In this document: in pieces, positions 9,248 to 57,749 of the stretch | Layout: each line of letters opens with the position of its first letter | Numbering within the stretch: position 1 is the first letter of the stretch | Virus record (IMG/VR): IMGVR_UViG_3300008114_000011 | DNA length: 64,000 nt | Source: a virus | Lineage: Duplodnaviria; Heunggongvirae; Uroviricota; Caudoviricetes | Strand: one strand, 5' to 3' | The notes under the pieces: generated by a model | What the model was told of the DNA's origin: nothing | Database searches by the model: none | Seen by the model: the letters and a program-made list of their open reading frames with translations, nothing else | Program-made: the position numbers and the translations under genes

Positions 9248-9262
9248 AAATAAAAACGAATT

Positions 9263-9481: not shown

Positions 9482-9490
9482 ATTGGACTT

Positions 9491-9775: not shown

Positions 9776-9780
9776 AAAAA

Positions 9781-9810
9781 AGTTTGAGTAGTCAATTAAC
9801 TACTCAAACT
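9781..9810. terminator. hairpin between convergent genes
   Basis: AGTTTGAGTAG-tcaattaa-CTACTCAAACT flanked by A-run / T-run. Confidence 0.45.
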
Positions 9811-10344
9811 AATATTATTTCCTACATAAAAAAGATAAGGAACACCACTTGGACTAGTTCCACTAACTGTCGGCGCACCATCCAAAGATGTCAATTTATT
9901 ATCTCTACAATCAAAAACATAAACCTTTTTTGGTGAACCTTCTAAAGATGTCAATTCATTTTTACTACAATCAAATCTTTCCACACCAATTTGTGGTGAT
10001 CCAACTAAAGTTGTTAATTGATTATTACTACAATTGAAATCCCCATTAATTTCTTTTGGAGCACCTTCTAAGGATGTTAATTGATTGTTACTACAATTGA
10101 AATCACCATTGACTTTATTAAACTTAACCGGTAACTTAGTTAGCTTTAAACCAGATAAATCAACATGACAATAAACATCAACAGATAAATCATCATTAAC
10201 TCTAAACCTTTTACCAATAGAGCTATCACCAATTAAATATAAATTACAAAGTCCAATCACTTTATTTTTAGCGGACTTTAACTTTTGTTCATCACTTTTT
10301 TCGAAGAAGTCAAAAAAACCTTCAAATGTTTTTAATTTTTTCAT
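9796..10344 (-). CDS. leucine-rich-repeat-like protein (~22-aa tandem repeats GDFNCSNNQLTSLEGAP) with MKKLKTFEGF N-terminus
   Basis: five tandem ~22-residue LRR-like units visible in protein and as ~66-nt DNA repeats. Confidence 0.65.
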   Translation of the reverse strand: MKKLKTFEGFFDFFEKSDEQKLKSAKNKVIGLCNLYLIGDSSIGKRFRVNDDLSVDVYCHVDLSGLKLTKLPVKFNKVNGDFNCSNNQLTSLEGAPKEINGDFNCSNNQLTTLVGSPQIGVERFDCSKNELTSLEGSPKKVYVFDCRDNKLTSLDGAPTVSGTSPSGVPYLFYVGNNISLSS

Positions 10345-10374
10345 TTCATTTATTTTTTTAAATATAATAATAAA

Positions 10375-10914
10375 TTATTTAAACTCTATAACAAACTTAA
10401 AATCATGTTTAAGTCCCACTATTTCACTTTCTGAAATTTTCTTTGAATATCTAAGTGAATTTACAGAGAAGTTTTCAGGTTTTAACCAATCTTGTTCACT
10501 ATATGTAAACATATAATAAGTAACCGAATAACCACTATCAGTTATTTTATTAGCAATTTCAAATAACTTCTTTTTATCAACCTTATCTAAAACTACATAG
10601 ATTGGTAAGTTTAATTTTTTTATATTCTTAGTTTTAATATAATCTGGATCATTTTTATAAAGGTATTCAATTGAATTTCCCATACTCAATAAATGAGCAC
10701 CTTTATCATTTGAATTATCAAAACTAGACTTTGATGTACTAACTAAATCACCTTCTTCAAAATTCAATTTAATCAATTTAACGCTTGGGTGGTTAAATGT
10801 AAACCTTCCTGGTGATGAATAGATAATAGCATCTGGTTTTATATTATTAAGTTCTTTTACTAAAGAAACTAAACTATCATTTGATAGTGACTCATATGTT
10901 TGTAAATATCTCAT
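10375..10914 (-). CDS. hypothetical protein (N-term MRYLQTYESL)
   Basis: ORF. Confidence 0.55.
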   Translation of the reverse strand: MRYLQTYESLSNDSLVSLVKELNNIKPDAIIYSSPGRFTFNHPSVKLIKLNFEEGDLVSTSKSSFDNSNDKGAHLLSMGNSIEYLYKNDPDYIKTKNIKKLNLPIYVVLDKVDKKKLFEIANKITDSGYSVTYYMFTYSEQDWLKPENFSVNSLRYSKKISESEIVGLKHDFKFVIEFK

Positions 10915-11210
10915 TATTCTTCATCATTATTTTCTGGTATCATATTACCTAAAGCATTAAAAATCTGAATACCATCAAAACCTTCAGTTCTTAATACATG
11001 ATAGAACTCAGCAAACTCTTGAGTTGAAAAATCTCTATTACCAAACTCAGCTTTAAATCTTTCGATAATTTCGGATGTTTTATCATCATTGATTACATTT
11101 TTCTTTCTTAAAAAATTGTCTAACTCTTTAGTTCTATCTGAACGTCTTTCATTTTCTTGATATGTTCCTCTATCACGTCCATAATTTTCAAATGTTTTAA
11201 TATTCTTCAT
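10914..11210 (-). CDS. hypothetical acidic small protein (N-term MKNIKTFENY)
   Basis: ORF; 3' ~40 nt duplicated at 16934-16970. Confidence 0.5.
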   Translation of the reverse strand: MKNIKTFENYGRDRGTYQENERRSDRTKELDNFLRKKNVINDDKTSEIIERFKAEFGNRDFSTQEFAEFYHVLRTEGFDGIQIFNALGNMIPENNDEE

Positions 11211-11258
11211 AATAATTTTTATTTTCTTTATATATTAAAAAGTAATTTTTATTTTTTT

Positions 11259-11266
11259 TATATTTG
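11259..11266 (+). promoter_or_regulatory. Bacteroidetes-type -7 box TAnnTTTG
   Basis: TATATTTG upstream of 11292. Confidence 0.4.
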
Positions 11267-11291
11267 TAGTATAAATTAAAAACGAAAAGAG

Positions 11292-11528
11292 ATGGCTGAT
11301 AAAACTCCAATGGAACAATTGATTGATAAGATTGATTTATACGATAAAAATGGTGGTATTAATATGTTTACATTAAAAGATGTTTTACAATCTTATCTTA
11401 AAATAGAGACTGAATATTTATCTAATTTAAAACTAGAGAAAGTAGAGAAGGTCAAGGAGGAGAAAAAACACCGTTGTCCAGAGTGTGGTAGATATAACTC
11501 AGGTACTTGTAATTGTTGGTTCTCTTAA
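11292..11528 (+). CDS. hypothetical protein, paralog of 1534..1986 N-domain with C-terminal zinc ribbon (CPECG..CNC)
   Basis: paralogy; TAnnTTTG box at 11259. Confidence 0.55.
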   Translation: MADKTPMEQLIDKIDLYDKNGGINMFTLKDVLQSYLKIETEYLSNLKLEKVEKVKEEKKHRCPECGRYNSGTCNCWFS

Positions 11529-11559
11529 TTGACTTCGTTAAAAATAAAACTGGAATAAT

Positions 11560-11823
11560 ATGAAAAGAATACTTTTAGGAATAGCAATCGGTATAACCGT
11601 AATCACTACATTATCAATGACTATTAGTGGTGCAACGAATGATAATAGATTTGGTGGAAACAGTGGTGTTATGTTAACTGTACCTGCTAAACCAACTTCG
11701 ACGGTATATGTAGGATACGATCAATTAAATAAATATCTACAAAAGGGATATCAAGTACAACAAGTAGTGACTGGTGATTATAATGAACCAAGAAATCATA
11801 GTTTCTTAATGGTTAAATATTAA
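11560..11823 (+). CDS. small secreted/membrane protein (signal-peptide-like N-terminus)
   Basis: hydrophobic N-terminus MKRILLGIAIGITVITTLS. Confidence 0.5.
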   Translation: MKRILLGIAIGITVITTLSMTISGATNDNRFGGNSGVMLTVPAKPTSTVYVGYDQLNKYLQKGYQVQQVVTGDYNEPRNHSFLMVKY

Positions 11824-11856
11824 AAGATTTTGGTGATTATTGTAAAAATATTACTA

Positions 11857-11950
11857 TATTTGTTTTAGTCAGGTGGCGGAATTGGTAGACGTTATTAGAG
11901 GTAAATCCATGTAGGTAAAATCGAAAGGTTCTCATACAGGTTCGAGTCCT
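11857..11950 (+). tRNA. tRNA-like gene (long-variable-arm type; GGCGGAATTGGTAGAC D-arm, GGTTCGAGTCC T-arm)
   Basis: acceptor AGTCAGG/CCTGACT pairing, canonical D and T arms; anticodon arm not resolved by eye; TAnnTTTG box immediately upstream. Confidence 0.5.
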
Positions 11951-12125
11951 GTCCTGACTACGAGGTTCTAACTATGTGTGGTTTTGTGTATTACATAGGG
12001 TGAGGTTTAGTAAATACCATTTATTGAATAAAAAATACACGCCAGGGCGGAAATGTAACTTAATACAACTGGGTTGACCTTGATCAGGTGTTACGTGAGT
12101 TCAAATCTCAATCTGTCCACTAAAT

Positions 12126-13062: not shown

Positions 13063-13542
13063 ATGAAAGTAATATTTTTAGACATAGATGGCGTTCTTAA
13101 CCTTTGTTACGAAGGTAGAGATGAATATGGATCACTATTTCATCCACACTTAGTAGACAATCTAAAACGATTGATTGATGAAACTGGTGCTAAGATTGTT
13201 ATAAGTAGTACTTGGCGTTTAAGTGGGTTAGAAATAATGAAAGAAATGTGGATTAAAAGAGGTTTACCAGGTGAGGTTATTGGTATAACTCCAAACTTTA
13301 TGAGACATTATGGCACAACTTTATGTAGAGGAAAAGAAATAGACGCTTATCTTAAAGAGAACAAAGATATTACGAGTTATTTAATCTTAGACGATGATAC
13401 AGATATGGAAGAACACCAACTACCTTATTTCGTAAAAACATCTGGTAATAAAGATCACGAAGATTGTGTTGATATTGGTTATGGTTTGACAAGAATCTGT
13501 ACGGATAAGGCAATAGAAATACTAAATAACTTAGAGTTATGA
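13063..13542 (+). CDS. HAD-superfamily phosphatase
   Basis: motif I FLDIDGVL near N-terminus, motif II VISSTWR; TAnnTTTG box at 13039. Confidence 0.65.
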   Translation: MKVIFLDIDGVLNLCYEGRDEYGSLFHPHLVDNLKRLIDETGAKIVISSTWRLSGLEIMKEMWIKRGLPGEVIGITPNFMRHYGTTLCRGKEIDAYLKENKDITSYLILDDDTDMEEHQLPYFVKTSGNKDHEDCVDIGYGLTRICTDKAIEILNNLEL

Positions 13543-26004: not shown

Positions 26005-26019
26005 AAAATAGGTTAGGTG

Positions 26020-26093
26020 GGTAGCTCAACTGGAAAGAGCCTCTCATTAAGAGAGAGATTAAGGTTCGAATCCTGTCCCTTCTGACCTATACT
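26020..26093 (+). tRNA. tRNA-like element, possibly degenerate or partial (GTAGCTCAACTGG D-arm, GGTTCGAATCC T-arm, candidate TAA anticodon)
   Basis: D-arm, anticodon hairpin CTCTC-ATTAAGA-GAGAG and T-arm are recognisable but the acceptor stem pairs poorly. Confidence 0.35.
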
Positions 26094-29969: not shown

Positions 29970-30770
29970 ATGAAAAAGACAAATTATTACGAAATTTGTA
30001 ATCAAAAATTGAAGTATTTAAACTATTCAGATAGGACTATCAAGTCCTATCTTTATTATATTAATCAATTTTTAGAAAATACTAAAATACCACCAACCAG
30101 ATTAACAGCAACAGATTTCCAACAATATCTCAATAATTACAATTTTACCTCCACCTCACAACAAAATCAAGTCATAAACTCAATAAGATTCCTATACAAA
30201 GAATCACTTAATAAAAAATATGATAAGGTTGATTTTAAAAGACCTAGATCTGAAAAGAAACTACCAAAAGTAATTGATGGCGATTATATCAAATCTAAAC
30301 TTTCTAAAATAGAAAACCTTAAGCATAAAACTATACTTACTTTAACCTATTCAGTTGGTTTAAGAGTTTCCGAAATAATAAATCTTAAAATAGAAGATAT
30401 TGACTCCAAAAGAATGATTATTCATATTAAAAATGCTAAAGGTAAAAAAGATAGAATTGTACCACTTTCAGAAAACGTACAAAATCTAATAAAAATATAT
30501 TCAGAAAAATATACACCAAAAGAATATCTTTTTAATGGTCAATCCACAAACAAATATTCAATACAATCCTGTCAAAATATCTATAAAAAATATATTGATG
30601 AAAATTCATCTATACATACCCTCAGACACTCAGCCTTTACCAACCTCTTAGAAAATGGAACAGATCTAAGAATAATACAGAAAATAGCAGGTCACTCATC
30701 CACCAAAACAACAGAGATATATACACACGTTTCTAATCAACTTTTAAATAAAGTTAATCTACCAATTTAA
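29970..30770 (+). CDS. tyrosine recombinase/integrase (XerC/D-like)
   Basis: C-terminal catalytic block HTLRHSAFTNLLENGTDLRIIQKIAGHSSTKTTEIYTHV (R..H-x-x-R..Y). Confidence 0.85.
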   Translation: MKKTNYYEICNQKLKYLNYSDRTIKSYLYYINQFLENTKIPPTRLTATDFQQYLNNYNFTSTSQQNQVINSIRFLYKESLNKKYDKVDFKRPRSEKKLPKVIDGDYIKSKLSKIENLKHKTILTLTYSVGLRVSEIINLKIEDIDSKRMIIHIKNAKGKKDRIVPLSENVQNLIKIYSEKYTPKEYLFNGQSTNKYSIQSCQNIYKKYIDENSSIHTLRHSAFTNLLENGTDLRIIQKIAGHSSTKTTEIYTHVSNQLLNKVNLPI

Positions 30771-30794
30771 CTTTTCTTTGAAAAGAATTATTAA

Positions 30795-31256
30795 ATGATT
30801 ATATTTGTATATAATCACACACATAATATGATAAAGTTTGTTAAGAAGTCGAGTTCGGGGTCTACAAAAGAGGTGGATTTAATATTATCTGATGTTAGTA
30901 ATTGTAAATCATTAGCATCTTCTATCTTATTAAGAAAATATTTAATGGAGATGGATGTGGATTATATAGAGAAGATGGATTTGATTAATAAACGTATTGA
31001 GTTTAGTAGAAGTTATTTAGAGAGTGTTTTATCTCGTGATGGTGATATTAAGTGTACTTATTGTGGTAAGGGAGATTTGGTTATTGAGTATGATGGGATG
31101 CGTGTCAAAGAAAGTATAAAGGCTACGATTGATCATATCGTTCCTGTATCAAGAGGAGGAGGTAGGTTTGATGTTAGTAATATAACTCCATGTTGTGGTG
31201 AGTGTAATGGTAAGAAGGGTAATAAGTCATTAGATGATTTTCTAAAGTCGATTTAA
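30795..31256 (+). CDS. HNH endonuclease
   Basis: CTYCGK...IDHIVPVSRGGGRFDVSNITPCCGECNGKKGNK. Confidence 0.7.
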   Translation: MIIFVYNHTHNMIKFVKKSSSGSTKEVDLILSDVSNCKSLASSILLRKYLMEMDVDYIEKMDLINKRIEFSRSYLESVLSRDGDIKCTYCGKGDLVIEYDGMRVKESIKATIDHIVPVSRGGGRFDVSNITPCCGECNGKKGNKSLDDFLKSI

Positions 31257-31257
31257 T

Positions 31258-31650
31258 ATGAATAAGATCACATTTTGTTTATCGGATAAGGCTGAATCAT
31301 TTTCATTTGATTTTGATTACTTTACTTTATTGGATGATGGTTCCATAACTTATAGTGGTGTAAATAGACATACTGGTTTTAGCACTAACGAGTTTTATGA
31401 TATTGAGAATATTTTTAAACAAAATGAGAGGTTTGATTTAATTGTATTGAGATGTTTTAGAATTAGAATAAATACTGTAAATAGGGTTATACATGGAGAG
31501 ATTACAAGTTTTGAGAGTTCTGGTCTTAGTAAGGTAAATTTAACTATTAAACCTAAGTTTATTTGGGATCTCGATCTTGGTGATGAGTTTTACAAACATT
31601 TACCAGCAATCAGAAGAGAAATAAAATTAAATAATATTATAGGAATATGA
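31258..31650 (+). CDS. hypothetical protein with RREIKLNNIIGI tail
   Basis: family tail. Confidence 0.55.
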   Translation: MNKITFCLSDKAESFSFDFDYFTLLDDGSITYSGVNRHTGFSTNEFYDIENIFKQNERFDLIVLRCFRIRINTVNRVIHGEITSFESSGLSKVNLTIKPKFIWDLDLGDEFYKHLPAIRREIKLNNIIGI

Positions 31651-31946
31651 CATTAGAAGAATTAAGAGATCGTCCTTTAGAAGAAAAGGTAGATTATATA
31701 TGTGACTACGTTATCTCTCATGGATTGGGACCAAAGTTTAGAAATATTTCTTTCCGTGGAGTAATTGTTGAATATAAGGATATATTTGATGCTATTAGAG
31801 AAGTTAATAGGAGTTTAAGACCAGCTGAATATCATACCGATTGGTATCGATTAGGTGCTAATGTATTTAAAAATGAATTAGTTAAGGGAGTTTTAAATCA
31901 TGAATTGATATTCCCACGTATAAAAGAAGAAATATCAAAGTTATGA
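31647..31946 (+). CDS. hypothetical protein, tandem paralog A
   Basis: MTLEELRDRPLEEKVDYI...VKGVLNHELIFPRIKEEISKL. Confidence 0.55.
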   Translation: MTLEELRDRPLEEKVDYICDYVISHGLGPKFRNISFRGVIVEYKDIFDAIREVNRSLRPAEYHTDWYRLGANVFKNELVKGVLNHELIFPRIKEEISKL

Positions 31947-32242
31947 CATTAGAAGAGTTAAGAGAAAAGTCTTTAGAAGAAAAGGTGAATTATATTTTTG
32001 ATTATGTTACGTCTTATGCTCGTGAAAGAGAAGATAGGTTTAAAGATATACCTTTACGTGTATTAATTGATGAGTATGATGATATAATTGATGTTTTCAG
32101 AGAAGTTAATTATGGTCTAAGAAGATTTTGGAGTCAACCCGGATATCGAGCAAGTATTGAATATAAGAGAGAAGTAGTTAAGGGAGTTTTAAATCATGAA
32201 TTGTTATTCCCACGTATAAAAGAAGAAATATCAAAGTTATGA
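31943..32242 (+). CDS. hypothetical protein, tandem paralog B
   Basis: near-identical N- and C-termini to 31647..31946. Confidence 0.55.
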   Translation: MTLEELREKSLEEKVNYIFDYVTSYAREREDRFKDIPLRVLIDEYDDIIDVFREVNYGLRRFWSQPGYRASIEYKREVVKGVLNHELLFPRIKEEISKL

Positions 32243-33172: not shown

Positions 33173-33889
33173 ATGAGAAATAATTTAGTAGAGATATTTC
33201 ACGATACTCAAATCAAGTCCGTGAAGTTTAATGATGGTGTTACAACACAACATTCAAATAATGAGATAGTTGGACCTTATTTATCAGTTTATAAAGGTAA
33301 TGTTAAGGTCGTTAATTTAGATACGGTATCTGCTCTTGTAGAGTTATCTAAGTCTGGTAAAACTTGTGGCTTGAATATGGCTTCGTATAAGAAACCGGGT
33401 GGTGGAGTTCGTAATGGAGCCAGAGCTCAAGAAGAATGTTTATTTAGATGTTCTAACTTAATCAATTCAATTGTAGAAGATTTTTATCCATTAGAAGATG
33501 GTACTTGTCTTTATACATCAGATGCTACATTCTTTAAAGATAAGGATTATAATGATATGGAACCGGTTGAGTGTGATATTATTACGATAGCTGCTATAAA
33601 CTTAAACAGTCGTAGTTATGATAAAGAGACTTATGAAGAGATTACACTCCAAAAGATAAGATTGATGCTTACTATCCCATCTAAACATGGTGTTGAGAAC
33701 TTGGTTTTGGGAGCTTTTGGTTGTGGTGTTTTTGGGAATGATCCCCATGTGATGTCAGAATTATTTAGAAAGGTTTTAGTTGAAGAAGGTTATTCATCTT
33801 TATATAAAGAGGTTGTTTTTGCTGTTATAAACGATCATAATTCTGTTGGTAATAATTATAGTGTGTTTTCTGATAAATTCTACTCTTAA
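33173..33889 (+). CDS. bacterial-type poly(ADP-ribose) glycohydrolase-like macrodomain protein (DUF2263 family)
   Basis: PARG signature GGG-x7-QEE (KPGGGVRNGARAQEE) plus GAFGCGVFGNDP. Confidence 0.65.
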   Translation: MRNNLVEIFHDTQIKSVKFNDGVTTQHSNNEIVGPYLSVYKGNVKVVNLDTVSALVELSKSGKTCGLNMASYKKPGGGVRNGARAQEECLFRCSNLINSIVEDFYPLEDGTCLYTSDATFFKDKDYNDMEPVECDIITIAAINLNSRSYDKETYEEITLQKIRLMLTIPSKHGVENLVLGAFGCGVFGNDPHVMSELFRKVLVEEGYSSLYKEVVFAVINDHNSVGNNYSVFSDKFYS

Positions 33890-35674: not shown

Positions 35675-35677
35675 ATA

Positions 35678-35707
35678 AAAGTCCTGATGAAAATCAGGAC
35701 TTTTTTA
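35678..35707 (+). terminator. rho-independent terminator
   Basis: GTCCTGAT-GAAA-ATCAGGAC stem-loop followed by TTTTTT. Confidence 0.6.
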
Positions 35708-35915: not shown

Positions 35916-36203
35916 TTAGGTCCAAAGTGATTTTCTGATTTTCATAAGACGAAGTAACATTTCATCATCTTCATCATCAGAGTTTAACTTCCAATCTCTA
36001 TCTGAACGAATTTTCCACCATTGATAAAGAAATCTTACTTCATCTACAAAATCTTTGTGAGCTTCATAATTACAATGAGTGTCAACTCCTTCTTTTTCAA
36101 CACAATCTACAAGAATTTGAAAGCAAGAGTGTAACATAATGACATCTCGATCAATCCAAGCGTCTGATGCTTTTGGAAGTGTTGTTATTTTAACAAGTCT
36201 CAT
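35916..36203 (-). CDS. hypothetical protein
   Basis: ORF coupled to 36190..37002. Confidence 0.4.
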   Translation of the reverse strand: MRLVKITTLPKASDAWIDRDVIMLHSCFQILVDCVEKEGVDTHCNYEAHKDFVDEVRFLYQWWKIRSDRDWKLNSDDEDDEMLLRLMKIRKSLWT

Positions 36204-37002
36204 ATAAATCTGTTATTTCAATTTTAAATTTCTGATAAGTTTCATCACTTATACCTAATTTTTCTAACCAATTCTTAAAGTATTGATCTAATTCATTACT
36301 TCTCGGATGTGTTCCTAAATGATAAAGTTCAAAATCTTTTCTATTTTGAATTTTATCAGCGATCAACATATCATTTACATCTTTTAAAGGAGATAATCTA
36401 ATTTCTTCTAAAGAATTAATCTCTCTTTTAGATAAGTATTCATTTGCTACTGAACGATATTCTGTTAAAGCAATTATAGTCTTTGTATCAAATTCCTTTA
36501 ATTGGTCATAGTTTTGTTTTAATGCCTCATCACTTTGAATAATAGGGTGTAACATATAAGCCTTTTTAGCTGTTTCTGATGCTCCTATTTTTTCTAAAAT
36601 ATAAAGACCTTCATCTATGTGGTTCATTAAGTAAACACCACTACGAGTTGCCTTTTGATCACCATAAAATTGTGATATTGTTTTGTATTCTTTCGTATCT
36701 TCAAAATCTACTTCTACGAATGGTATATCATTCTTTTTTAAGTAATCTGAAATGTTACAATCAGTTGACGTTATAATTTTATTTGTTATCCACTCTTTGT
36801 AAATTCCTTTACCTCGGTACCCATCTAATATATAAATTGATTGGTATGGTAGTCCACCTTTAATAAAATAAGCAATAACAACACCTTCATCCGGAGTTAT
36901 TATTTCATTTAATGAAAAACCAAATCGTAACAATTGTTTAGCTCTCGCCATAAAATATTCAATTGCTTCATCAGTTGTTTTAGCGTCGTGGTTAAATCTC
37001 AT
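36190..37002 (-). CDS. hypothetical protein (270 aa)
   Basis: long ORF; no motif recognised. Confidence 0.5.
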   Translation of the reverse strand: MRFNHDAKTTDEAIEYFMARAKQLLRFGFSLNEIITPDEGVVIAYFIKGGLPYQSIYILDGYRGKGIYKEWITNKIITSTDCNISDYLKKNDIPFVEVDFEDTKEYKTISQFYGDQKATRSGVYLMNHIDEGLYILEKIGASETAKKAYMLHPIIQSDEALKQNYDQLKEFDTKTIIALTEYRSVANEYLSKREINSLEEIRLSPLKDVNDMLIADKIQNRKDFELYHLGTHPRSNELDQYFKNWLEKLGISDETYQKFKIEITDLYETC

Positions 37003-46404: not shown

Positions 46405-47193
46405 ATGGGAAAACATTATTTATATAAACATATAAGAAATGATAGTAATATCATTTTCTATATTGGTATAGGGACAAAAAATAAATCTGATATAACTTAT
46501 AATAAGTATAGTAGGGCTTTTAATAAAAAAAGGAGAAATAAACATTGGTTAAATACAGTTTCTTTATTGAATGATGATTATTCAATTGAGATAGTATGTG
46601 AGACCGATGATTATGAATATGTGAAAAGTCTAGAAAAAAATCTGATTTTATTTTATGGTAGAAAGGATCTAGGTTTAGGTAATTTAGTAAATATGACAGA
46701 TGGTGGTGATGGTCAAATAAAAAGAGTTTGGAGTGAAGAGTCTAGGAAGAAGGCATCTAAATCACACATTGGTAAAGTAATTGATGGTGAGTGGAAGAAA
46801 AATTTAATAAAAGCTAGATTTGGAAATAAATCACATTCTGGTCGAACTTTTTCAGATGAACATAGAAAAAAAATATCAGAAGCAGGTAAGGGAAAAATAC
46901 CTTGGAATAAGAATAGAGAATTATCCAATGATGAGATTGAAAAAATAAAAAAGGGTATAGAAGAAAATAAAAAAATTTGTTATATTTGTAATGTTGAGTG
47001 TGACTCTGCTAATTATAATAGATGGCATGGTGATAAATGTGAGATGGGATCTATTTTAGATAGGGTTGATGAGATAAAGGATTTATTGTATAATAAAGTT
47101 CCTTTACTTAGGATTAGTAGAGTTTTAGGAATAAAGTATAAATTATTGAGAAGATTAAAAGAGTCAGTTTTATTTAAAGAAGAATTATTATGA
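46405..47193 (+). CDS. GIY-YIG homing endonuclease with NUMOD3 repeats (I-TevI-like)
   Basis: YLYKHI..IIFYIGIG..R..NKHW GIY-YIG core; repeated SEESRKKASKSHIGK / SDEHRKKISEAGKGK. Confidence 0.8.
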   Translation: MGKHYLYKHIRNDSNIIFYIGIGTKNKSDITYNKYSRAFNKKRRNKHWLNTVSLLNDDYSIEIVCETDDYEYVKSLEKNLILFYGRKDLGLGNLVNMTDGGDGQIKRVWSEESRKKASKSHIGKVIDGEWKKNLIKARFGNKSHSGRTFSDEHRKKISEAGKGKIPWNKNRELSNDEIEKIKKGIEENKKICYICNVECDSANYNRWHGDKCEMGSILDRVDEIKDLLYNKVPLLRISRVLGIKYKLLRRLKESVLFKEELL

Positions 47194-47963
47194 AATATTT
47201 AAAAAAGAAATATCCGGATGGTAGCTTTTATGTTGAAGTAGAGGATTTTAGTGAACCTATAATAACCGAAAGAATAAATTCATATGAGGACCTTTTTTTC
47301 ATAAAATCCATCAAAGAGGTTTGTGATTTTAATGGAATTAAAGATGTTGAGTTATTTATACCATGTATGTTTCAACAGCAACATGACCGTAGATTTTTTG
47401 ATAATCAATCATTTGAACTAAAGATAGTTTGTGACTTTATCAACTCATGTAATTTTAGTAAAGTTTATGTTTTCCATCCACATTCTGATTCCACTCAAAT
47501 GGGATTGAATAATATTAGAGTTGTTGATAATTCTAAATTTATATCAAGTGTTTTAAGTAGAATTGATTCTAATCCAATATTATTTTCAACAGATGCTGGT
47601 TCATTTAAATGGATAAATAAATTAGTTGATAAAATAGGATTTAATGGTGATGTTTATTGTGCTAGTAAGTCTAGAGATTTAAAAACACATGATTTGAAGC
47701 AAGTTATTGATTGTTCTGATTTTGGTGGTAGAGATATATTAGTATTGGATGATTTATGTGTAAAGGGTGGTACATTTATAGGTCTATTGAATATGTTAAA
47801 GGAGAGAAATGTTGGTAAGATATACTTAGCAGTTAGTCATATGACTATTCAAGATCCAAATACAAGTCTTGAGTGTTATGATAAGATATTTACTACTAAT
47901 AGTAAGTATGACTATTATGTTCTAAATAATTTAGAATTGATTGATTATAAAAGTATTATATAA
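47190..47963 (+). CDS. ribose-phosphate pyrophosphokinase (Prs)-like phosphoribosyltransferase-fold enzyme; possibly a phage Adps-type ADPR pyrophosphokinase
   Basis: FHPHSD (cf. Prs MDLHADQ), PRPP-binding loop ILVLDDLCVKGGTF, LAVSHMT. Confidence 0.65.
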   Translation: MKYLKKKYPDGSFYVEVEDFSEPIITERINSYEDLFFIKSIKEVCDFNGIKDVELFIPCMFQQQHDRRFFDNQSFELKIVCDFINSCNFSKVYVFHPHSDSTQMGLNNIRVVDNSKFISSVLSRIDSNPILFSTDAGSFKWINKLVDKIGFNGDVYCASKSRDLKTHDLKQVIDCSDFGGRDILVLDDLCVKGGTFIGLLNMLKERNVGKIYLAVSHMTIQDPNTSLECYDKIFTTNSKYDYYVLNNLELIDYKSII

Positions 47964-47968
47964 AAGAT

Positions 47969-48826
47969 ATGAAAAACTTTAAAATAGGAGGTGTTCCCGA
48001 ACACTTCAACTTACCTTGGCGTTTAGCCATTGAAGAAGGAAGATTAAATGATTTAGATGTAAATCTACACTGGTCTGATATGACTGGTGGTACTGGTCAA
48101 ATGATTAAAGGTTTACAAGCAGGTTCAATTGACATCGCAGTTCTTCTTACTGAAGGAATTACAAAAGCAATTTTAGATGGTTTGGATGCCAAAATATTAA
48201 CAGTTTATGTTAAAAGTCCATTACGATGGGGTATTCACGTACCTTTTAATTCAGAAATGAAAACTTCTGATGATATCAAAGGTAAAACATTTGCTATCTC
48301 AAGAGAAGGTTCTGGTTCACACTTAATGGCTTATGTAAACTCATTTCAAAGAGGTTGGAATACCGATGATTTAAAGTTTGAAGTTGTTGGTGATGTTTAT
48401 GGTGGTTTATGGGCTTTAGAGAATGGGCAGTCTGATGTTTTCTTATGGGAAAAGTTTACAACTTATCCATTTGTTAAAGCAGAGAAATGTAAATGTATCG
48501 GTGAAGTTGTAACACCTTGGCCCTGTTTCGTAGTTGCTGTTAGAAACGAGATCTATGAACAACACAAAGATTTGTTAAGAGAAGTTATGAAAGTCGTTGG
48601 TGGTGTCGCAAATGAGATTAAAAACCCATCATTACATGATTTCTATTCAAATGAAATTTCTTGGAGATATAACTTAGAAAAAGATCAAGCTTCTACTTGG
48701 TTGAATGAAGTAGAATGGAACTACACTGGTGATAATGATGTTAATGATTATGAATTAGTAGTTGATTATCTACAAAAAATATCTCTTATTGAAGAAAATA
48801 AAGACTGGAAATCTAAATTATTTTAG
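47969..48826 (+). CDS. NMT1/THI5-like (periplasmic-binding-fold) protein, tentative
   Basis: FKIGGVPEHFNLPW N-terminus resembles the NMT1/ThiY/THI5 family; weak. Confidence 0.35.
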   Translation: MKNFKIGGVPEHFNLPWRLAIEEGRLNDLDVNLHWSDMTGGTGQMIKGLQAGSIDIAVLLTEGITKAILDGLDAKILTVYVKSPLRWGIHVPFNSEMKTSDDIKGKTFAISREGSGSHLMAYVNSFQRGWNTDDLKFEVVGDVYGGLWALENGQSDVFLWEKFTTYPFVKAEKCKCIGEVVTPWPCFVVAVRNEIYEQHKDLLREVMKVVGGVANEIKNPSLHDFYSNEISWRYNLEKDQASTWLNEVEWNYTGDNDVNDYELVVDYLQKISLIEENKDWKSKLF

Positions 48827-48862
48827 AGGTAATAGGTTCTTATATATATAAGTATAAAAGAA

Positions 48863-49846
48863 GTGATACTTATGTTAGAAGAATTTATAAAAAAATCGAT
48901 AGTTAAATTTGGTAATAAATTTGATTATAGTAAGTTTAATTATGTGAATGCTAAAACTAAATCTATAATCATATGCCCAGTACATAAAGATTTTTTTCAA
49001 ACACCTGATAAGCATTTACGTTCAAAATATGGATGTAAATTATGTTGGGAAATTGAAAAAAAGAAAATAAAAAGAGATTATGTAAAGGGTCCAAATATCA
49101 TTTCAAAAGATGAGTTCTTGGGTAGATGTTATGAGAAGTTTGGTGATAAATTCAAATACGATTTATCAAACTACAATGGGTTTGTTGGTGATTATATAAA
49201 AATAACTTGTTCAGAACATGGTGATTTTTATACAAAACCGAATATACATTTATTAAGTAATAACACCTATGGGTGTAAATTATGTGCTAATGATAATAGA
49301 GTACTCAATAAAACACAAACCTATGATGATGTTATAGAAAAATTATCAAATATTTATAATGATAAATATATTTATCCTGAATATAATAGAGATACTTATA
49401 TTAACAAGAGGTCGAAAATAGATATAATTTGTCCGGATCATGGGCTATTTGTTAAGAGTGTTCAAAAACACCAAAGCGGTCAATATTGTTTTGAGTGTAA
49501 AATTAAGAATATGGTTTTTAATAATATTTTAGTTGGTGGTTACACTGAGAAATTATTTGAAGATAAACCAGAATTAAAGGATAAAAAATCTAAATTATAT
49601 TATTTGAGAATAAATAATGGTGATTATTATAAAATAGGAATAACAACAGTTTCGGTTGAAAGTAGAATAAAGTCATTGAAGAGTAAATCTAAAGGTTTTA
49701 TAAAAGATGTTGAGATTTTATTTGAAAAGGAAATGTCTTTATATGAATCATATATCATGGAGAGTAAAATATTAAATGATAATATAGATAGTAGAGTTTA
49801 TAAAAAATGGAGTACTGAAATTTTCAACAAAAATGTTTTGGAATAA
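48863..49846 (+). CDS. homing-endonuclease-like protein: three zinc-ribbon modules plus C-terminal T5orf172/GIY-YIG-like domain
   Basis: three CP-xHG-x-F..H..GC-xxC repeats; KLYYLRINNGDYYKIGITT..R C-domain. Confidence 0.5.
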   Translation: MILMLEEFIKKSIVKFGNKFDYSKFNYVNAKTKSIIICPVHKDFFQTPDKHLRSKYGCKLCWEIEKKKIKRDYVKGPNIISKDEFLGRCYEKFGDKFKYDLSNYNGFVGDYIKITCSEHGDFYTKPNIHLLSNNTYGCKLCANDNRVLNKTQTYDDVIEKLSNIYNDKYIYPEYNRDTYINKRSKIDIICPDHGLFVKSVQKHQSGQYCFECKIKNMVFNNILVGGYTEKLFEDKPELKDKKSKLYYLRINNGDYYKIGITTVSVESRIKSLKSKSKGFIKDVEILFEKEMSLYESYIMESKILNDNIDSRVYKKWSTEIFNKNVLE

Positions 49847-49881
49847 TAGAATAATTATTATCTTTATAAAAAATAAAAACT

Positions 49882-51462
49882 ATGAACTTTTTAGAAATTT
49901 ATTATACCGATGTGTATAAAACAGGACACAAACCAATGCTACCAGTGGGTAGTGTTTTGATGCAATCAAATTTTACACCAAGGAGTGGTAAATATAGCAA
50001 TTGTCCAAATAATGGTAAAATTGTTTCGTTTGGTCAACAAATGATGGTGAGAAAAATGAAACAAGATTGGGATGTTAACTTTTTTCAAAGACCAATTGAA
50101 GAAATCGATCAATTTGGGAAGGATTTAACAGATATGTTAATGCTGAGTGATCCTTTTGATGTTACTCACTTCAAAGAACTACATAAATTGGGATATCTTC
50201 CGATTGAGTTTAGAGCAATCACTGAAGGTGAGAGAATTCCGTATAAAATACCATTATCGACTATCGTTAATACTAAACCTTTAAATGGTCAAGTTTTTGA
50301 CTGGATAGTTAATTACTTAGAAACTATTAATTCTGCTGAATCTTGGCAAGCACCAACTTCAGCGACGCTATCATTCGCATTAAGAGAGTTATCAACAAAG
50401 TGGATCACAAAAACAGATCCGGAGAGTTTGTGGTTTGTTGACTATCAAAATCATGATTTCTCAATGAGAGGTATGGGTGGTAAATCAGCTATTGTTAATA
50501 GTGGTTTAGGATTTGCTACTTGTTCGAGAGGTTCAGATACACTACCTGTTATACCAGCTGCTAGAATGTATTATGATGAAAAAGATGTTTGTATCAACTC
50601 TGTTATCGCATCTGAACATGCTATTATGTGTTCATTGACTGGATTTTTCATTAAGACTAAAGATGGTTCTTGGGATAAGGTTGGTAACTTTGAAGTTGAG
50701 ACATTTAGGTATTTATTAAGAACTTTTCCAACTGGAATATTGTCATTAGTATCTGATACTTGGGATTTATGGAGAGTTATTACGGAGTACTGTCAAATAT
50801 TAAAAGATGAAATTTTAGCAAGAGATGGCAAACTTGTTATCCGTCCTGACTCTGGTGATCCAGTAGATATTATTTGTGGTAGCATAACTCCAGATATGTC
50901 TTCTTATAATGAAAGATACAAACAACCTCAATATAAAGGTGTTATCGAGTTATTATGGGATATCTTTGGTGGTACTGAAACATCAACCGGATATAAAAAA
51001 TTAGACTCACACATTGGTGCTATCTATGGTGACTCTATTAACTATAAGAGAGCTGAGAGTATTTATGAAAGATTATCAGCTAAAGGATTTGCAACAACAA
51101 ACATCGTTCTCGGTGTGGGATCCTATTCACTTCAGATGGTAACACGCGATACACATGGTATGGCTCAAAAAGCAACCTACATCGAAATTGAAGTTGATGG
51201 TGATGTTGAAGGTATCAACATCTTTAAAGACCCTATCACTGATGATGGTACTAAAAAATCAGCAACTGGATTACTAAAAGTAGTTAAAGTTGATGGTGAG
51301 TTTACATTAATTGATAAATGTACTTGGGATGATGTTAACTCGGAAGATAATGAGCTGAAAGTTATCTTCAAAGATGGTAAGTTCTATAACGAAACGACTT
51401 TGACCATCATACGTGGGAAGTTAGAGGATCTTGTTTCTAAAGAACAACCTGAATTAGTTTAA
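49882..51462 (+). CDS. nadV: nicotinamide phosphoribosyltransferase (NAMPT/NadV) family
   Basis: TDVYKTGH, IRPDSGDPVD and NIFKDPITDDGTKKSATGLL match NAMPT blocks. Confidence 0.85.
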   Translation: MNFLEIYYTDVYKTGHKPMLPVGSVLMQSNFTPRSGKYSNCPNNGKIVSFGQQMMVRKMKQDWDVNFFQRPIEEIDQFGKDLTDMLMLSDPFDVTHFKELHKLGYLPIEFRAITEGERIPYKIPLSTIVNTKPLNGQVFDWIVNYLETINSAESWQAPTSATLSFALRELSTKWITKTDPESLWFVDYQNHDFSMRGMGGKSAIVNSGLGFATCSRGSDTLPVIPAARMYYDEKDVCINSVIASEHAIMCSLTGFFIKTKDGSWDKVGNFEVETFRYLLRTFPTGILSLVSDTWDLWRVITEYCQILKDEILARDGKLVIRPDSGDPVDIICGSITPDMSSYNERYKQPQYKGVIELLWDIFGGTETSTGYKKLDSHIGAIYGDSINYKRAESIYERLSAKGFATTNIVLGVGSYSLQMVTRDTHGMAQKATYIEIEVDGDVEGINIFKDPITDDGTKKSATGLLKVVKVDGEFTLIDKCTWDDVNSEDNELKVIFKDGKFYNETTLTIIRGKLEDLVSKEQPELV

Positions 51463-51947: not shown

Positions 51948-53663
51948 TTATGTACAATCTGGACAATCAATTCTACCATCACCATCACATCGATTACACC
52001 AAATTCTACCTTCACCATCACAATCACCACACTCTCTGGTACCATCACCACCACATCTATCACATTCGTTAGTACAGTCACCCTCACATTCAGAACAATC
52101 TTGTTTACCTGATCCACTACAATAAGAACACTCATTTCCCTCATCATCTTCTCCAGTTCCATCACAACTAGAACAGTCTTCTTTTCCAGTTCCTTCGCAG
52201 TTATCACAAGGTAGAGTACCGTGTCCATCACAATTAGAACATTCTACTTCACCAGAGGCACCACATTCTTCACAATCATATCTTCCATCACCCTCACATT
52301 CATAGCAATCAATTCTTTCATCACCACCACATCTTTCACATTCTTCTCCATTACCACCATCAGTTTCTCTTAGTTCGTAATAGTTACTATTTATTACTAA
52401 TTTTTGCTCATTTGTTAAGAATCCATAATCCCATTCATAATAACAAAGAGTATCTAAATAAGGGTATTTACTAAAGCCGTTCATTTCTAAATCAACTTTA
52501 ATTGTTCCGATGTTTGAATCAGAACCATTAAACATAAACTCTTCCTCTGAAATATTTTGATTTTTCTTATAAACATATCCCATTTTAATTGCGTATTTAA
52601 TAAACAATTCTTGGTCTGGTGAATTACTCACATAAATTCTATCCATAAATGGTTTTCCTTCTGATTCGGTATGTTTTACTAAATTATATTTCGTTATTAC
52701 TCCTTCATCATCACCACCATCCCATGGCATATATTCTGGTTTTTTCCAAAGAAGAGCTCTACCTATAATTTTAGTTGGATCTTCTTTAGATTTTAATATA
52801 ACTAATCCAACACTTTTAGGATTTTTAGAATATATGTTTAAGTAGTCTTGACATCTAGCATGTCTCATACAAGATGCTCCTAAAGTATGATTACCACCTC
52901 GATAATAATTACCTTCATAATAAAACTTTTTAATATCATCACCTTCAACCAATTCAAAATCAGAGAATATATTTTCTTTTTTAGCTTTAGTGGCAATTGA
53001 AAACTTAGTTACAAAATCTTCAACTTCAGTTCCTTTAACTTCTTTACCAGCTTTCTTCAATAGTGATTGAACGAATGATCCAACTCTAACTTCTTGTGAG
53101 GAAACCGCTCCCTCACCAATTTTAAGACCATAATCTTCAATGATAAGATCAATATTCTCACCACTTCTATTAAATCTTATATGATAAATTTTACGTCCTT
53201 GATCAAGATACCATTTTAATCTATTTTTTACATCCTCATCATTAAAATCATCAATACTTGTTATCTGTTTAGTAATAGTAGCTTTTTGGTTTCTTTGAAG
53301 TAATTCATACCAATTCAAAAAACCTTTTTCGACTCTTGGATCTTCAAATAATTTAGCAAATGATGTAAATATTTCTTTTGATAAGATAGACAATGATGCG
53401 CCAAAATCAATTATAACACAAGAGTTTTTAGACTTTTTATCGGATTTAAATTGTATAAAGTTGTCTTTATCATCAGAAATATCAATAAAGTTTGTATCAA
53501 CATCAACGTCAACACCCTCTAAATCTAAAATCTCTTTTGAAAGTGGACTATTAACCGACTTCAAAATTTCTTTGAAATCATCTTTATAAACCATATTACC
53601 TTCAAGTAGTAAATTGAGTTTACTCTCGTTTAGGAAACTATCATATCTTAAAATATTACTCAT
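51948..53663 (-). CDS. hypothetical protein, paralog of 61155..62276, with C-terminal array of ~12 DnaJ-type CxxCxGxG zinc-finger units
   Basis: shared core GxSCM..GRALLWKKP..FMDRIYV..KYPYLDTLC; tail CERCGGD..CYECEGDG..CEECGASG.. Confidence 0.6.
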   Translation of the reverse strand: MSNILRYDSFLNESKLNLLLEGNMVYKDDFKEILKSVNSPLSKEILDLEGVDVDVDTNFIDISDDKDNFIQFKSDKKSKNSCVIIDFGASLSILSKEIFTSFAKLFEDPRVEKGFLNWYELLQRNQKATITKQITSIDDFNDEDVKNRLKWYLDQGRKIYHIRFNRSGENIDLIIEDYGLKIGEGAVSSQEVRVGSFVQSLLKKAGKEVKGTEVEDFVTKFSIATKAKKENIFSDFELVEGDDIKKFYYEGNYYRGGNHTLGASCMRHARCQDYLNIYSKNPKSVGLVILKSKEDPTKIIGRALLWKKPEYMPWDGGDDEGVITKYNLVKHTESEGKPFMDRIYVSNSPDQELFIKYAIKMGYVYKKNQNISEEEFMFNGSDSNIGTIKVDLEMNGFSKYPYLDTLCYYEWDYGFLTNEQKLVINSNYYELRETDGGNGEECERCGGDERIDCYECEGDGRYDCEECGASGEVECSNCDGHGTLPCDNCEGTGKEDCSSCDGTGEDDEGNECSYCSGSGKQDCSECEGDCTNECDRCGGDGTRECGDCDGEGRIWCNRCDGDGRIDCPDCT

Positions 53664-56024: not shown

Positions 56025-57749
56025 ATGAAAAGAATATTATTTTTACTAACACTATTATTATCATTTAGTTCATTAGCAACTAATTATTATATTAGTTCAA
56101 CCGGAAACAATACAAACAATGGAACATCATCTATTACACCAAAATTAACATTAGCAAACGTTTTCAGCACCTATAATTTAGGTTCTAATGATACTATTTT
56201 CGTTGAAGCAGGAACTTATTCTGAGACAGGTATTACTGTTGGTACTGATGATGAAGGTTTTGTAATTTCTGGTGCGGCTTTATCATCTGGTGTACCTACA
56301 TCTATTTTTGATGCAGGTAGTACCGCAAGATGGTTATTGTTAAATAACACAAATAATGATAATATCACAATCACTAAATTAATTATAAAGGATCATAAAA
56401 ATTCTGATGGAGGTGATCCAGGAGGTGGTGGAGCAATTAAAATAATTGCTGGATGTACAGGATTTAAAGCAACTTATTGTCAGTTTGATAATTGTGATAC
56501 AAGAACTGCCTCTTTACATCACCGAGGTGGTGTTATTTATTCTGCTGAGGGAATAACCATCGATTATTGTACTTTCAAAAATTGTAATGCTGAATATTAT
56601 GGTGGTGCTATTTCAATAGAATTATCACCAACATCATCATCATCAATAAAACATTCAATTTTTTATTCAAATACCGCTACTAATTACGGAGGTGCTATAT
56701 TCTTTGGTGTTGGATCTACCTCTACTCTAACATTAGAAAACTGTTTATTTTATGAAAATAATACATCATCAGGAGAGGCTGTTATTGTTGCTATGAATAC
56801 ATATAGTACATTAAATATTATGAACTGTACTATAACTGCTAATGGTAATGCTTCTGTTGGAACTGGAGGTGTTTTGGCTTTATCATCAGCTAAAATAAAT
56901 TTAATAAATACAATTATTTATAATAATTTAGGTAATACTTTCAATGATGTTTATAATAATGCCGCTACCGTTAACATGACAAATTGTTGTTATGGAAATT
57001 CAGCTGAGATAAAATCAGCTACATCAAATACATCACCGTTAATATCAAATCCACTATTCACAAATAGTGCTAGTGATGATTATACACTTTCTGGTACATC
57101 ACCTTGTATAGATTGGGGAACAACAACCGGAGCACCAACTGATGATTTGAGACATTATAGTCGTATTGGTAATCCAGATGTTGGATGTTATGAATCAAAT
57201 GGTATTGCTTTACCAATTGAGTTGATTTACTTTAAAGTTAAATTTGAAGATGGTGTTGTTAAATTAAGATGGTCAACAGCATCAGAACACAATAATGATT
57301 ATTTCACAATTGAAAAGTCAAAAGATGGTTTAGATTATGATATAGTTACAACTCTACCAGGTGCTGGTAATTCAACTCAAAGAATAAACTATCAAGCAAT
57401 TGATCGAAATATTGAAACTGGAATAACTTACTATCGATTAAAACAAACTGATTATAATGGTGATTATAAAAGAACAGATTGGGAGTCTATATTAATTCAA
57501 TTAAATATTGAGAACTTAACGGTTTATCCAAATCCAATTACAAATGAAATAAATGTTTCTTTACATTCATCTTTTAGTAAGGTTGAAGACTTATTGATAT
57601 ATGATTTAACCGGTAAACAATTTTATAAAAAATCATTAGATTTACAATTAGGTGATAATTATTTTGATGTAGAGTTACCACAACTTTCTAAAGGTCTTTA
57701 CATACTACAAATAGGTGATAAGAAACTTAAACTTGAATATAATGATTAA
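56025..57749 (+). CDS. secreted right-handed beta-helix (pectin-lyase-fold) protein with T9SS C-terminal sorting domain
   Basis: signal peptide; Gly/Asn/Thr-rich beta-helix repeats; C-terminal ~80 aa match Por secretion-system CTD (..LTVYPNPITNEINVS..LYILQIGDKKLKLEY). Confidence 0.7.
   Translation: MKRILFLLTLLLSFSSLATNYYISSTGNNTNNGTSSITPKLTLANVFSTYNLGSNDTIFVEAGTYSETGITVGTDDEGFVISGAALSSGVPTSIFDAGSTARWLLLNNTNNDNITITKLIIKDHKNSDGGDPGGGGAIKIIAGCTGFKATYCQFDNCDTRTASLHHRGGVIYSAEGITIDYCTFKNCNAEYYGGAISIELSPTSSSSIKHSIFYSNTATNYGGAIFFGVGSTSTLTLENCLFYENNTSSGEAVIVAMNTYSTLNIMNCTITANGNASVGTGGVLALSSAKINLINTIIYNNLGNTFNDVYNNAATVNMTNCCYGNSAEIKSATSNTSPLISNPLFTNSASDDYTLSGTSPCIDWGTTTGAPTDDLRHYSRIGNPDVGCYESNGIALPIELIYFKVKFEDGVVKLRWSTASEHNNDYFTIEKSKDGLDYDIVTTLPGAGNSTQRINYQAIDRNIETGITYYRLKQTDYNGDYKRTDWESILIQLNIENLTVYPNPITNEINVSLHSSFSKVEDLLIYDLTGKQFYKKSLDLQLGDNYFDVELPQLSKGLYILQIGDKKLKLEYND

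Follow-up and report, generated by a model that had tools for sequence, protein, structure and literature searches.

A microbial-type PARG gene in the window

The DNA analyzed here is a stretch of 64,000 nucleotides (hereafter "the window") from the IMG/VR virus record IMGVR_UViG_3300008114_000011 (Caudoviricetes), and is part of an uncultivated huge phage. One of its genes encodes a protein that belongs to the microbial-type poly(ADP-ribose) glycohydrolase (PARG) family of the macrodomain superfamily and that stands alone. The open reading frame (ORF) and the parts of it that matter for its function are as follows.

33173..33889, + strand: PARG gene, with an ATG start, 238 codons and a stop codon
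33398..33436, + strand: catalytic loop G76-G77-G78-VRNGARA-Q86-E87-E88, which carries the GGG-x7-QEE signature
33710..33745, + strand: diphosphate-binding loop G180-AFGCGVFGNDP-P191 of the macrodomain, from sequence alignment
33833..33868, + strand: C-terminal segment D221-HNSVGNNYSV-F232, the "ribose cap" region, from sequence mapping

A 99-aa ORF upstream stops 2 nt ahead of the PARG start codon, and a convergent 143-aa ORF overlaps the PARG stop codon by 4 nt. In the translation, residues 74-88 read KPGGGVRNGARAQEE, which contains GGG-x7-QEE, and residues 180-191 read GAFGCGVFGNDP.

The initial annotation of this locus had proposed a bacterial-type PARG (DUF2263) on the basis of these two motifs, and profile searches bear out the proposal, with matches much stronger than chance would give. 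The protein matches Pfam PF10021 (PARG_cat_microb, formerly DUF2263) with E=1.1e-20 and 75 bits against a cut-off of 23.5, and NCBIfam TIGR02452 with E=8.1e-38 and 130.5 bits against a cut-off of 50. The latter alignment joins residues 38-232 of the protein to positions 52-264 of the 266 in the profile. PF05028, which describes the canonical PARG macro fold, is touched only below threshold. PARG families are the only ones that Pfam returns, RyR/R12 (PF02026) not being among them, and no PHROG family is matched. Among PDB chains searched with phmmer, the protein matches PARG of T. curvata (3sig, E=3.9e-17) and of D. radiodurans (5zdb, E=1.1e-16), and both motifs pair residue for residue with both structures.

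Six metagenome contigs, assembled independently and taken from different samples (NCBI GCA_031545005 and GCA_031546785; JGI 3300031758 and 3300021575; one ENA and one Logan assembly), carry the gene together with 900 bp on each side at 100% identity; in one of the six, L006, the contig end leaves 104 bp downstream of the gene. Contigs with the identical gene are as long as 171 kb. Because it is identical in six independent contigs, the gene is real and not an assembly artefact. The phage population that carries it has been sampled repeatedly.

Active site and fold

Conservation was judged in an alignment of 92 diverse homologues that are 31-58% identical to the window PARG. Residues G76, G77, G82, Q86, E87, E88, G185 and F232 are invariant in all 92, G78 is kept in 90, and conservation of at least 90% is seen at L67, N68, A70, G78, V79, R92, G183, C184, N189, P191 and N228. 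The invariant residues include both members of the Glu-Glu pair on which the initial annotation had relied.

When the protein is aligned with 3sig by phmmer, PGGGVRNGARAQEE of the window PARG pairs with PGGGFLSGAHAQEE, and E88 is the counterpart of catalytic residues E115 of T. curvata PARG and E112 of D. radiodurans PARG. The second Glu of the PARG signature GGG-X6-8-QEE is the catalytic one (PMC6445106, PMC8120803). The E112A substitution abolishes activity of D. radiodurans PARG (PMC6445106), and the E115A mutant of T. curvata PARG is deposited as PDB 3sij. The diphosphate loop GAFGCGVFGNDP aligns to GAWGCGVFGNDP in T. curvata PARG (3sig) and to GAWGCGVFRNDP in D. radiodurans PARG, and 85 or more of the 92 homologues keep its residues A181, G183, C184, N189 and P191.

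AlphaFold prediction from the single sequence was unusable (pLDDT 40), and the final AlphaFold 2 model was built with the 92-sequence alignment (pLDDT 94.8, pTM 0.92). The top 13 Foldseek matches of this model in the PDB are all PARGs of T. curvata or D. radiodurans, at E-values from 9e-18 to 4e-12. The TM score is 0.83-0.85 to T. curvata PARG (3sih/3sij), in keeping with the initial annotation, and 0.81 to 5zdc; TMq over the 13 matches is mostly 0.74-0.85, and is 0.65 for the apo form 5zda. The canonical PARG of Tetrahymena ranks after the bacterial enzymes (E=3e-6), and ordinary macrodomains match at E ~1e-5 and a TM score of ~0.5. The model has the macrodomain fold with the N-terminal extension of bacterial PARGs.

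The PARGs of T. curvata (3SIG, 3SIH, 3SIJ) and D. radiodurans (DRB0099; 5ZDA-5ZDG) are thus members of the same PF10021/TIGR02452 family. At ~250-277 aa they are in the same size class as the window PARG (238 aa), and they share with it the GGG-x7-QEE and G-A-[FW]-G-C-G-V-F-x-N-D-P loops and the fold (TM score 0.81-0.85). They differ in being cellular rather than phage-encoded, and are only 24-26% identical to the window PARG in the structural alignment.

Judged by its sequence and predicted fold, the window PARG has every feature of an active bacterial-type PARG. Its intact active site suggests that it would hydrolyze poly(ADP-ribose) or O-linked ADP-ribose to free ADP-ribose. The family, its structure and its chemistry are already known, and viral copies exist in databases under automatic labels; beyond the ribose-cap position described below, the sequence departs nowhere from the known family. 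The protein is small, soluble-looking and modelled with confidence, and it should be easily testable.

The ribose-cap position

In T. curvata PARG, Arg268 is paired with Asp261 in the "ribose cap" and blocks the 2'-OH side of the bound unit, which makes the enzyme a strict exo-glycohydrolase. D. radiodurans PARG has Thr267 at this position, and endo activity was seen (PMC6445106). We mapped the D. radiodurans segment D260-NHPQHP-T267-LGAF, as deduced from PMC6445106, onto D221-HNSVGN-N228-YSVF of the window PARG by sequence rather than by superposition. This mapping places Asn at the cap position (N227 or N228, the register being ambiguous by one residue). Residue 228 is Asn in 89 of the 92 homologues, and none of them has Arg or Lys at either 227 or 228.

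The window PARG therefore appears to lack the Arg268-Asp261 arrangement of the strict exo subtype, and at this position is nearer to D. radiodurans PARG, with its Thr267, than to T. curvata PARG. This suggests that its pocket is open like that of the D. radiodurans enzyme, and that it could take a substrate extending past the terminal unit, such as an RNA chain.

A probable role in counter-defence

Microbial PARGs carry out exo-hydrolysis of poly(ADP-ribose) (PMC8120803), and the D. radiodurans enzyme acts in endo mode too (PMC6445106). The linkages known to be cut by the family are the alpha(1''-2') ribose-ribose bond of poly(ADP-ribose), the same bond in RNA that is ADP-ribosylated at the 2'-OH, and 5'-phosphate ADP-ribose on RNA or DNA (PMC11833690). 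Two bacterial PARGs, SCO0909 and DRB0099, reverse the 2'-OH ADP-ribosylation of RNA by RhsP2, efficiently remove 5'-phosphate ADP-ribose, and protect cells in vivo (PMC11833690). Both belong to the same family as the window PARG, have the same catalytic Glu, and are stand-alone, protective enzymes with no cognate toxin adjacent (PMC11833690). They are chromosomal and guard bacteria from the toxin of a competitor, whereas the window PARG is viral and, by analogy, the attacker would be the host.

Phages are known to encode stand-alone erasers that reverse the action of a host transferase. The NADAR protein AdfN (T4 and other phages) acts against DarT1 (PMC11825919), and the DarG2-like macrodomain protein AdfM (chimalliviruses) acts against DarT2 (PMC13309987). 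Each looks like the half of a bacterial system that provides the antitoxin or immunity. AdfN has the NADAR fold, unlike PARG, and AdfM belongs to a macrodomain subfamily other than that of the window PARG. Moreover, AdfN and AdfM cut base-linked ADP-ribose on DNA, whereas PARG-type enzymes cut O-glycosidic ribose and phosphate linkages.

By analogy with AdfN and AdfM, and with the bacterial PARGs that neutralize RhsP2, we infer that the phage PARG is probably an orphan eraser of ADP-ribosylation inflicted by the host. The modifications most likely to be reversed would be host ADP-ribosylation of RNA, of DNA ends or in the form of poly(ADP-ribose). From homology to the T. curvata and D. radiodurans enzymes, the macrodomain pocket is expected to bind a terminal ADP-ribose, with the G180-P191 loop holding its diphosphate and the G76-E88 loop setting E88 against the ribose'' C1''-O bond. 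E88 would protonate the leaving oxygen, water would attack the oxocarbenium intermediate, and free ADP-ribose would be released. During infection, the enzyme may in this manner strip ADP-ribose that host ADP-ribosyltransferase toxins or defences have put on nucleic acids of the phage or of the translation apparatus. The freed ADP-ribose could then be available to a NARP1-like Adps/Namat gene pair of the phage, which is described below.

Several points weigh against this reading. Our literature search turned up no description or test of a phage microbial-type PARG, and no enzymatic or infection data for any phage PARG. No ADP-ribosyltransferase or defence target was found in the window, 54 ORFs of which were scanned with Pfam or PHROG (10 near the PARG gene and 44 elsewhere), although the window is part of a genome and a small or divergent transferase could escape such scans. 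The PARG gene is not adjacent to known anti-defence genes. When the phage of the window is set aside, 84 PARG loci remain, of which 80 are viral contigs and four are from metagenomes or GenBank; one of them has an Adps-like gene no more than 10 kb from its PARG gene, and none has a Namat-like gene at that distance. Finally, the host assignment comes solely from a type IX secretion sorting domain and the phage relatives.

Undoing ADP-ribosylation is coming to be seen as a general means of phage counter-defence. The erasers demonstrated in phages so far are of two kinds only, the NADAR protein AdfN and the DarG-like macrodomain AdfM, both acting on DNA bases. If our reading is true, a PARG-type eraser would extend counter-defence to O-glycosidic and phosphate-linked ADP-ribose on RNA and nucleic-acid ends. 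Such linkages are the chemistry of RhsP2-like and Tpt1/KptA-like enzymes.

Distribution and relatives of the phage PARG

The PARG family is large, with 8,518 cluster representatives (50% identity) matched at E<=1e-3, yet only 98 of them are matched at E<=1e-30. The closest relatives of the window PARG, at 45-67% identity, are on viral contigs of 100-675 kb. Those of 55-67% identity are metagenomic, several of them on contigs of 611-658 kb, and the nearest beyond the identical copies reaches 67%. Relatives are encoded on 445 IMG/VR stretches, the top 80 of which are mostly contigs of 100-675 kb, with some giant-virus bins. An exact 41-mer of the window's PARG gene gave no match in an IMG/VR search.

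GenBank phages rarely carry such a gene: a PARG match was found by tblastn in 20 of 50,697 phage records, at 33-52% identity. These include LR756502 (52% identity), LR756511, Lak megaphages and Bacillus phage G (gp114), the last being the only isolate among the 20. The top match in BFVD, "Gp114 [uncultured marine phage]", is 50% identical and has a TM score of 0.92; giant-virus proteins labelled as microbial-type PARG come next. All of these homologues, including gp114, the Lak megaphage ORFs, those of LR756502 and LR756511, and the giant-virus proteins, belong to the same family and come from very large viral genomes. Their database labels are automatic (gp114, TIGR02452 family, Orfan), without a described function. 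A gene that is rare in isolated phages and common in metagenomic huge phages may reflect pressure from defences that are peculiar to hosts of very large phages.

When one representative genome per prokaryotic species was searched, cellular homologues reached at most ~39-43% identity, over part of the protein. The best cellular matches include Hoylesella, Porphyromonadaceae, Prevotella, Flavobacterium, Chryseobacterium and many Clostridia. Because the copies in huge phages (45-67% identity) are much closer than any cellular one (~40% at most), the window PARG appears to belong to a sub-clade that has long been resident in large phages.

This distribution bears on whether the gene is of any use to the phage. 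It might be a passenger, recently acquired from a bacterial NAD/ADP-ribose island and without a role in infection, or its product might be a non-catalytic binder or sponge of ADP-ribose. Cellular homologues do occur in many phyla, Bacteroidota included, and the flanks of the gene consist of small ORFs of unknown function and mobile elements, among them a recombinase gene and an HNH endonuclease gene. However, long residence in phages argues against recent acquisition, and catalytic and ligand-binding residues that are invariant or nearly so over 92 homologues are not expected of a decaying passenger or of a mere binder. We therefore regard this explanation as very unlikely.

Gene neighbourhoods in phages and in cells

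The viral neighbourhood set comprises 90 loci (80 viral contigs and 10 metagenome or GenBank loci), which were reduced to 49 lineages by grouping PARGs at 80% identity. The ORFs up to 10 kb from the PARG gene were all clustered, and no family is found in more than six of the 49 lineages. The families that recur near viral PARG genes are these.

Homing-endonuclease-like protein: 6 lineages
Dihydrofolate reductase (DHFR): 5 lineages
M42 peptidase: 4 lineages
Prs: 3 lineages
RNA ligase: 3 lineages
Nudix protein, ~600 bp from the PARG gene: 3 lineages

A PARG operon in phages was considered and rejected on these counts. In the window itself, the immediate neighbours of the PARG gene are small ORFs that could not be annotated, and only a tyrosine recombinase and an HNH endonuclease were identified among 10 ORFs checked within ~3 kb. 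Searches of the window by tblastn with examples of KptA, ARH, Macro, NADAR, SIR2 and DUF4291 gave nothing. The phage PARG is thus an orphan: it is phage-encoded and stand-alone, with no cognate toxin adjacent.

Homologues in cells are found in a different setting. In the 80 best cellular loci, families were counted within 3 kb of the PARG gene by clustering and Pfam; in the ranges below, the second figure counts every locus that tblastn matched at any point, out to 6 kb on each side. The counts are not independent, as many loci are from related Flavobacteriia, with others from Verrucomicrobiota, Bacillota and Dysgonomonas.

ADP-ribosylglycohydrolase (ARH): 12-14 loci
Tpt1/KptA RNA 2'-phosphotransferase: 9-10 loci
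NrtR-type Nudix regulator: 8-11 loci
Small Macro protein: 8 loci
NADAR: 7-10 loci
SIR2: 5-7 loci
DUF4291: 5 loci

Such islands, dense in ADP-ribose and NAD genes, are seen, for example, at loci L109, L124, L135, L144, L150, L154, L156, L160 and L165, and an adenylosuccinate-synthetase-like gene is also present in them. KptA and SIR2 are the only ADP-ribose-transferring enzymes in the cellular islands. Because they are the sole transferases there, the islands suggest that the target is ADP-ribose at the ends of nucleic acids or on small metabolites, and not protein poly(ADP-ribose).

The main rival to a counter-defence role is that the PARG serves nucleic-acid repair or the phage's own ADP-ribosylation. 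The enzyme would then clear 5'-phosphate ADP-ribose caps left on RNA or DNA by Tpt1/KptA-type enzymes, or trim the marks of a phage transferase encoded outside the window, as one element of the extensive set of RNA-repair and translation functions that huge phages carry. Bacterial PARGs do remove 5'-phosphate ADP-ribose (PMC11833690), the D. radiodurans gene shares its operon with genes for a ligase and a polynucleotide kinase/phosphatase, and Tpt1/KptA genes lie within 3 kb of the cellular homologues at the frequency given above. One viral locus (L083, positions 9176-11968) encodes a 698-aa PARG fusion with a Tpt1/KptA gene immediately after it. RNA ligase genes are found near the PARG gene in the three viral lineages listed, and in a related phage (L008) a gene with a 2H-SAK domain is 6 kb from its PARG gene. 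The window also has, at 13063-13542 (+ strand), a gene whose product carries a HAD domain known from "Swiss Army Knife" RNA repair proteins (PF18143, HAD_SAK_2, E=1.7e-27), and for its ORF at 57715-58476 Pfam gives a weak score, short of the cut-off, with a nucleotidyltransferase (PolyA_pol head) domain.

However, no KptA, ligase or transferase was found near the window PARG, which is not in an operon like that of D. radiodurans. KptA adjoins the PARG gene in only one of the 90 viral or metagenomic loci, and each repair-type neighbour is confined to a small minority of lineages. A repair function is thus unlikely, although it deserves more weight than the other alternatives, and removal of host-inflicted ADP-ribose remains the reading that we prefer.

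The fusion protein encoded at L083 has a central PARG domain, a C-terminal extension, and an N-terminal region with the motif "FVFGSN..G.HGGGAA" in which Pfam finds no match.

NAD and ADP-ribose genes elsewhere in the window

The initial annotation also linked the PARG gene to NAD- and ADP-ribose-handling genes elsewhere in the window. Such genes are indeed present, as follows, together with the two genes that separate the first pair.

47190-47963, + strand: ribose-phosphate pyrophosphokinase-like (Prs-like) gene, candidate Adps (phrog_619, E=6.3e-43)
47969-48826: Ca3427-like periplasmic-binding-protein gene, between the Adps-like and Namat-like genes
48863-49846: T5orf172/MUG113-type gene, between the Adps-like and Namat-like genes
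49882-51462, + strand: gene for a Namat-like nicotinamide (ADP-)ribosyl transferase (phrog_448, E=1.7e-156)
62295-62906, - strand: Nudix hydrolase gene (PF00293, E=2.3e-17)

In the PDB, the candidate Adps matches an archaeal Prs (4twb, E=2.3e-12); its Pfam match to Pribosyltran (7.6e-6) is below the cut-off. The Namat-like protein matches 9W5X/9W5W with E=4e-110, compared with 3e-36 for human NAMPT. These two entries are Namat of phage SPbetaL1, the ADPR-PP:nicotinamide transferase of NARP1 (PMC12774641). The adenine clamp of Namat is partly conserved in the window's protein, in which Tyr415 corresponds to F392, Lys37 to R40 and Met419 to Y396, and T398, R399 and D400 of Namat are retained. 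Positions 47190-51462 (+ strand) hold a NARP1-like NAD+ reconstitution pair, consisting of the Adps-like and Namat-like genes.

The Nudix protein matches 2qjt and 2qjo in the PDB at ~1e-9 and is similar to the Nudix domains with which NadM-Nudix and NrtR bind ADP-ribose; among its closest relatives of solved structure is the NadM-Nudix ADP-ribose pyrophosphatase domain. The protein is 36% identical (E=2e-20) to the Nudix domain of an NrtR regulator that adjoins bacterial PARGs, and was the sole match in the window when an NrtR example was used in a tblastn search.

The link to the PARG gene, as distinct from the presence of these genes, finds no support in gene positions. The distance from the PARG gene is 13.3 kb to the Adps-like gene and 16 kb to the Namat-like one, and the NAD and ADP-ribose genes overall are 13-29 kb away. 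A tight linkage between PARG and NARP1 was rejected, given the counts of one and zero in the 84 loci described above. Any connection would be one of metabolic plausibility only, in that PARG would release ADP-ribose and NARP1 would consume it, the Namat-like transferase acting on ADPR-PP derived from ADP-ribose, with no genomic association between them.

A precedent for such coupling is provided by RyDEP, a phage RyR-domain glycosidase for 2'cADPR and 3'cADPR, which hydrolyzes a ribose-ribose O-glycosidic bond to yield linear ADP-ribose usable by NARP1 (PMC13232231). The PARG of huge phages might likewise destroy immune signals of the host, by cleaving the Thoeris/TIR signal 2'cADPR at its 1''-2' ribose-ribose bond, and perhaps 3'cADPR too, with the resulting ADP-ribose fed to the NARP1-like pair for conversion to NAD+. 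The near-invariant Asn that replaces the cap Arg would then be an adaptation that admits a cyclic substrate, and the PARGs of huge phages would be a second, independently evolved class of signal glycosidase. The bond in 2'cADPR does have the same 1''-2' ribose-ribose connectivity as that in poly(ADP-ribose) (PMC13232231, PMC11833690), a NARP1-like pair is present in the window, and the Arg that closes the pocket of T. curvata PARG is Asn here.

However, the adenosines of the bound unit and of the leaving group are different ones in PARG and are identical in 2'cADPR, so that the canonical binding mode would seem sterically incompatible with this signal. RyDEP has a fold (PF02026) unrelated to that of the window PARG (PF10021), and it is encoded inside the NARP1 operon, whereas the window PARG is outside, 13-16 kb from the NARP1-like genes and unlinked to them in relatives. 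Our literature search gave no paper that treats gcADPR and PARG together, and according to the RyDEP paper these signals had no other known hydrolase (PMC13232231). Activity of a PARG on the cyclic substrates of RyDEP is purely hypothetical, and we consider this explanation very unlikely.

The phage and its probable host

The initial annotation's view that the locus is in a phage agrees with the relatives and gene content of the window. Its other genes and features are listed here.

26015-26084, + strand: tRNA-Leu, anticodon TAA, the sole tRNA of the window
29970-31256, + strand: tyrosine recombinase/integrase gene (266 aa), followed by an HNH endonuclease gene
31647-32242, + strand: two tandem 99-aa ORFs with a 4-nt overlap, just upstream of the PARG block
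35677-35704, both strands: perfect hairpin with a 12-bp stem, AAAAGTCCTGAT/ATCAGGACTTTT, flanked by T-runs on both strands
51948-53663, - strand: 571-aa ORF without a Pfam or PHROG match
56025-57749, + strand: gene for a 574-aa protein that ends in a type IX secretion (Por_Secre_tail) sorting domain
58500-59033, + strand: gene for full-length translation initiation factor IF3
59137-62276, - strand: three abutting ORFs of 373, 325 and 343 aa, the middle and last with intein splicing and LAGLIDADG domains

The GC content is 27-31% across the whole window, and its genes are short, tightly packed and mostly without a Pfam match. No virion gene lies in the window, and the phage assignment comes from relatives and gene content: matches to uncultured phages of 634-735 kb and to Bacteroidota phages, PHROG families, the tRNA and IF3 genes, an intein with a LAGLIDADG domain, and several homing-endonuclease-type genes (HNH, GIY-YIG/NUMOD1, NUMOD3 and T5orf172). 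The family of the 571-aa ORF has 8-16 copies per genome in the uncultured phages LR756501-LR756504 and LR745206 (634-735 kb), and occurs in part in Cellulophaga phages. The 735-kb genome is one reported in "Clades of huge phages" (PMC7162821). A 270-aa ORF at 36190-37002 (phrog_21276) matches jumbo phages that include Tenacibaculum phage PTm1, and the same phage is among the closest named matches of the Namat-like protein (45.7% identity). The 8 kb around the PARG gene gave no megablast match to GenBank phages; from this and from the 41-mer search of IMG/VR, the phage itself is taken to be absent from the collections as searched.

The C-terminal sorting domain of type IX secretion is typical of Bacteroidota. 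With the phage relatives, it indicates that the huge phage probably infects members of this phylum.

For the 373-aa part of the three abutting ORFs, no Pfam, PHROG or PDB match was found, the PDB search returning the intein alone. The three ORFs may represent one interrupted gene. The recombinase gene is called 25 residues shorter in L002 and L006, contigs that are otherwise identical to the window, which indicates local variation between populations. A promoter and terminator scan of 29-36 kb, in whose coverage Bacteroidota promoters are not included, gave 44 promoter-like sites, compared with 43.3 by shuffling. The hairpin at 35677-35704 lies between convergent gene blocks and looks like a bidirectional terminator. 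The two tandem 99-aa ORFs are clear paralogues, with a common MTLEELR...LEEKV start and a common ...KGVLNHEL.FPRIKEEISKL end.

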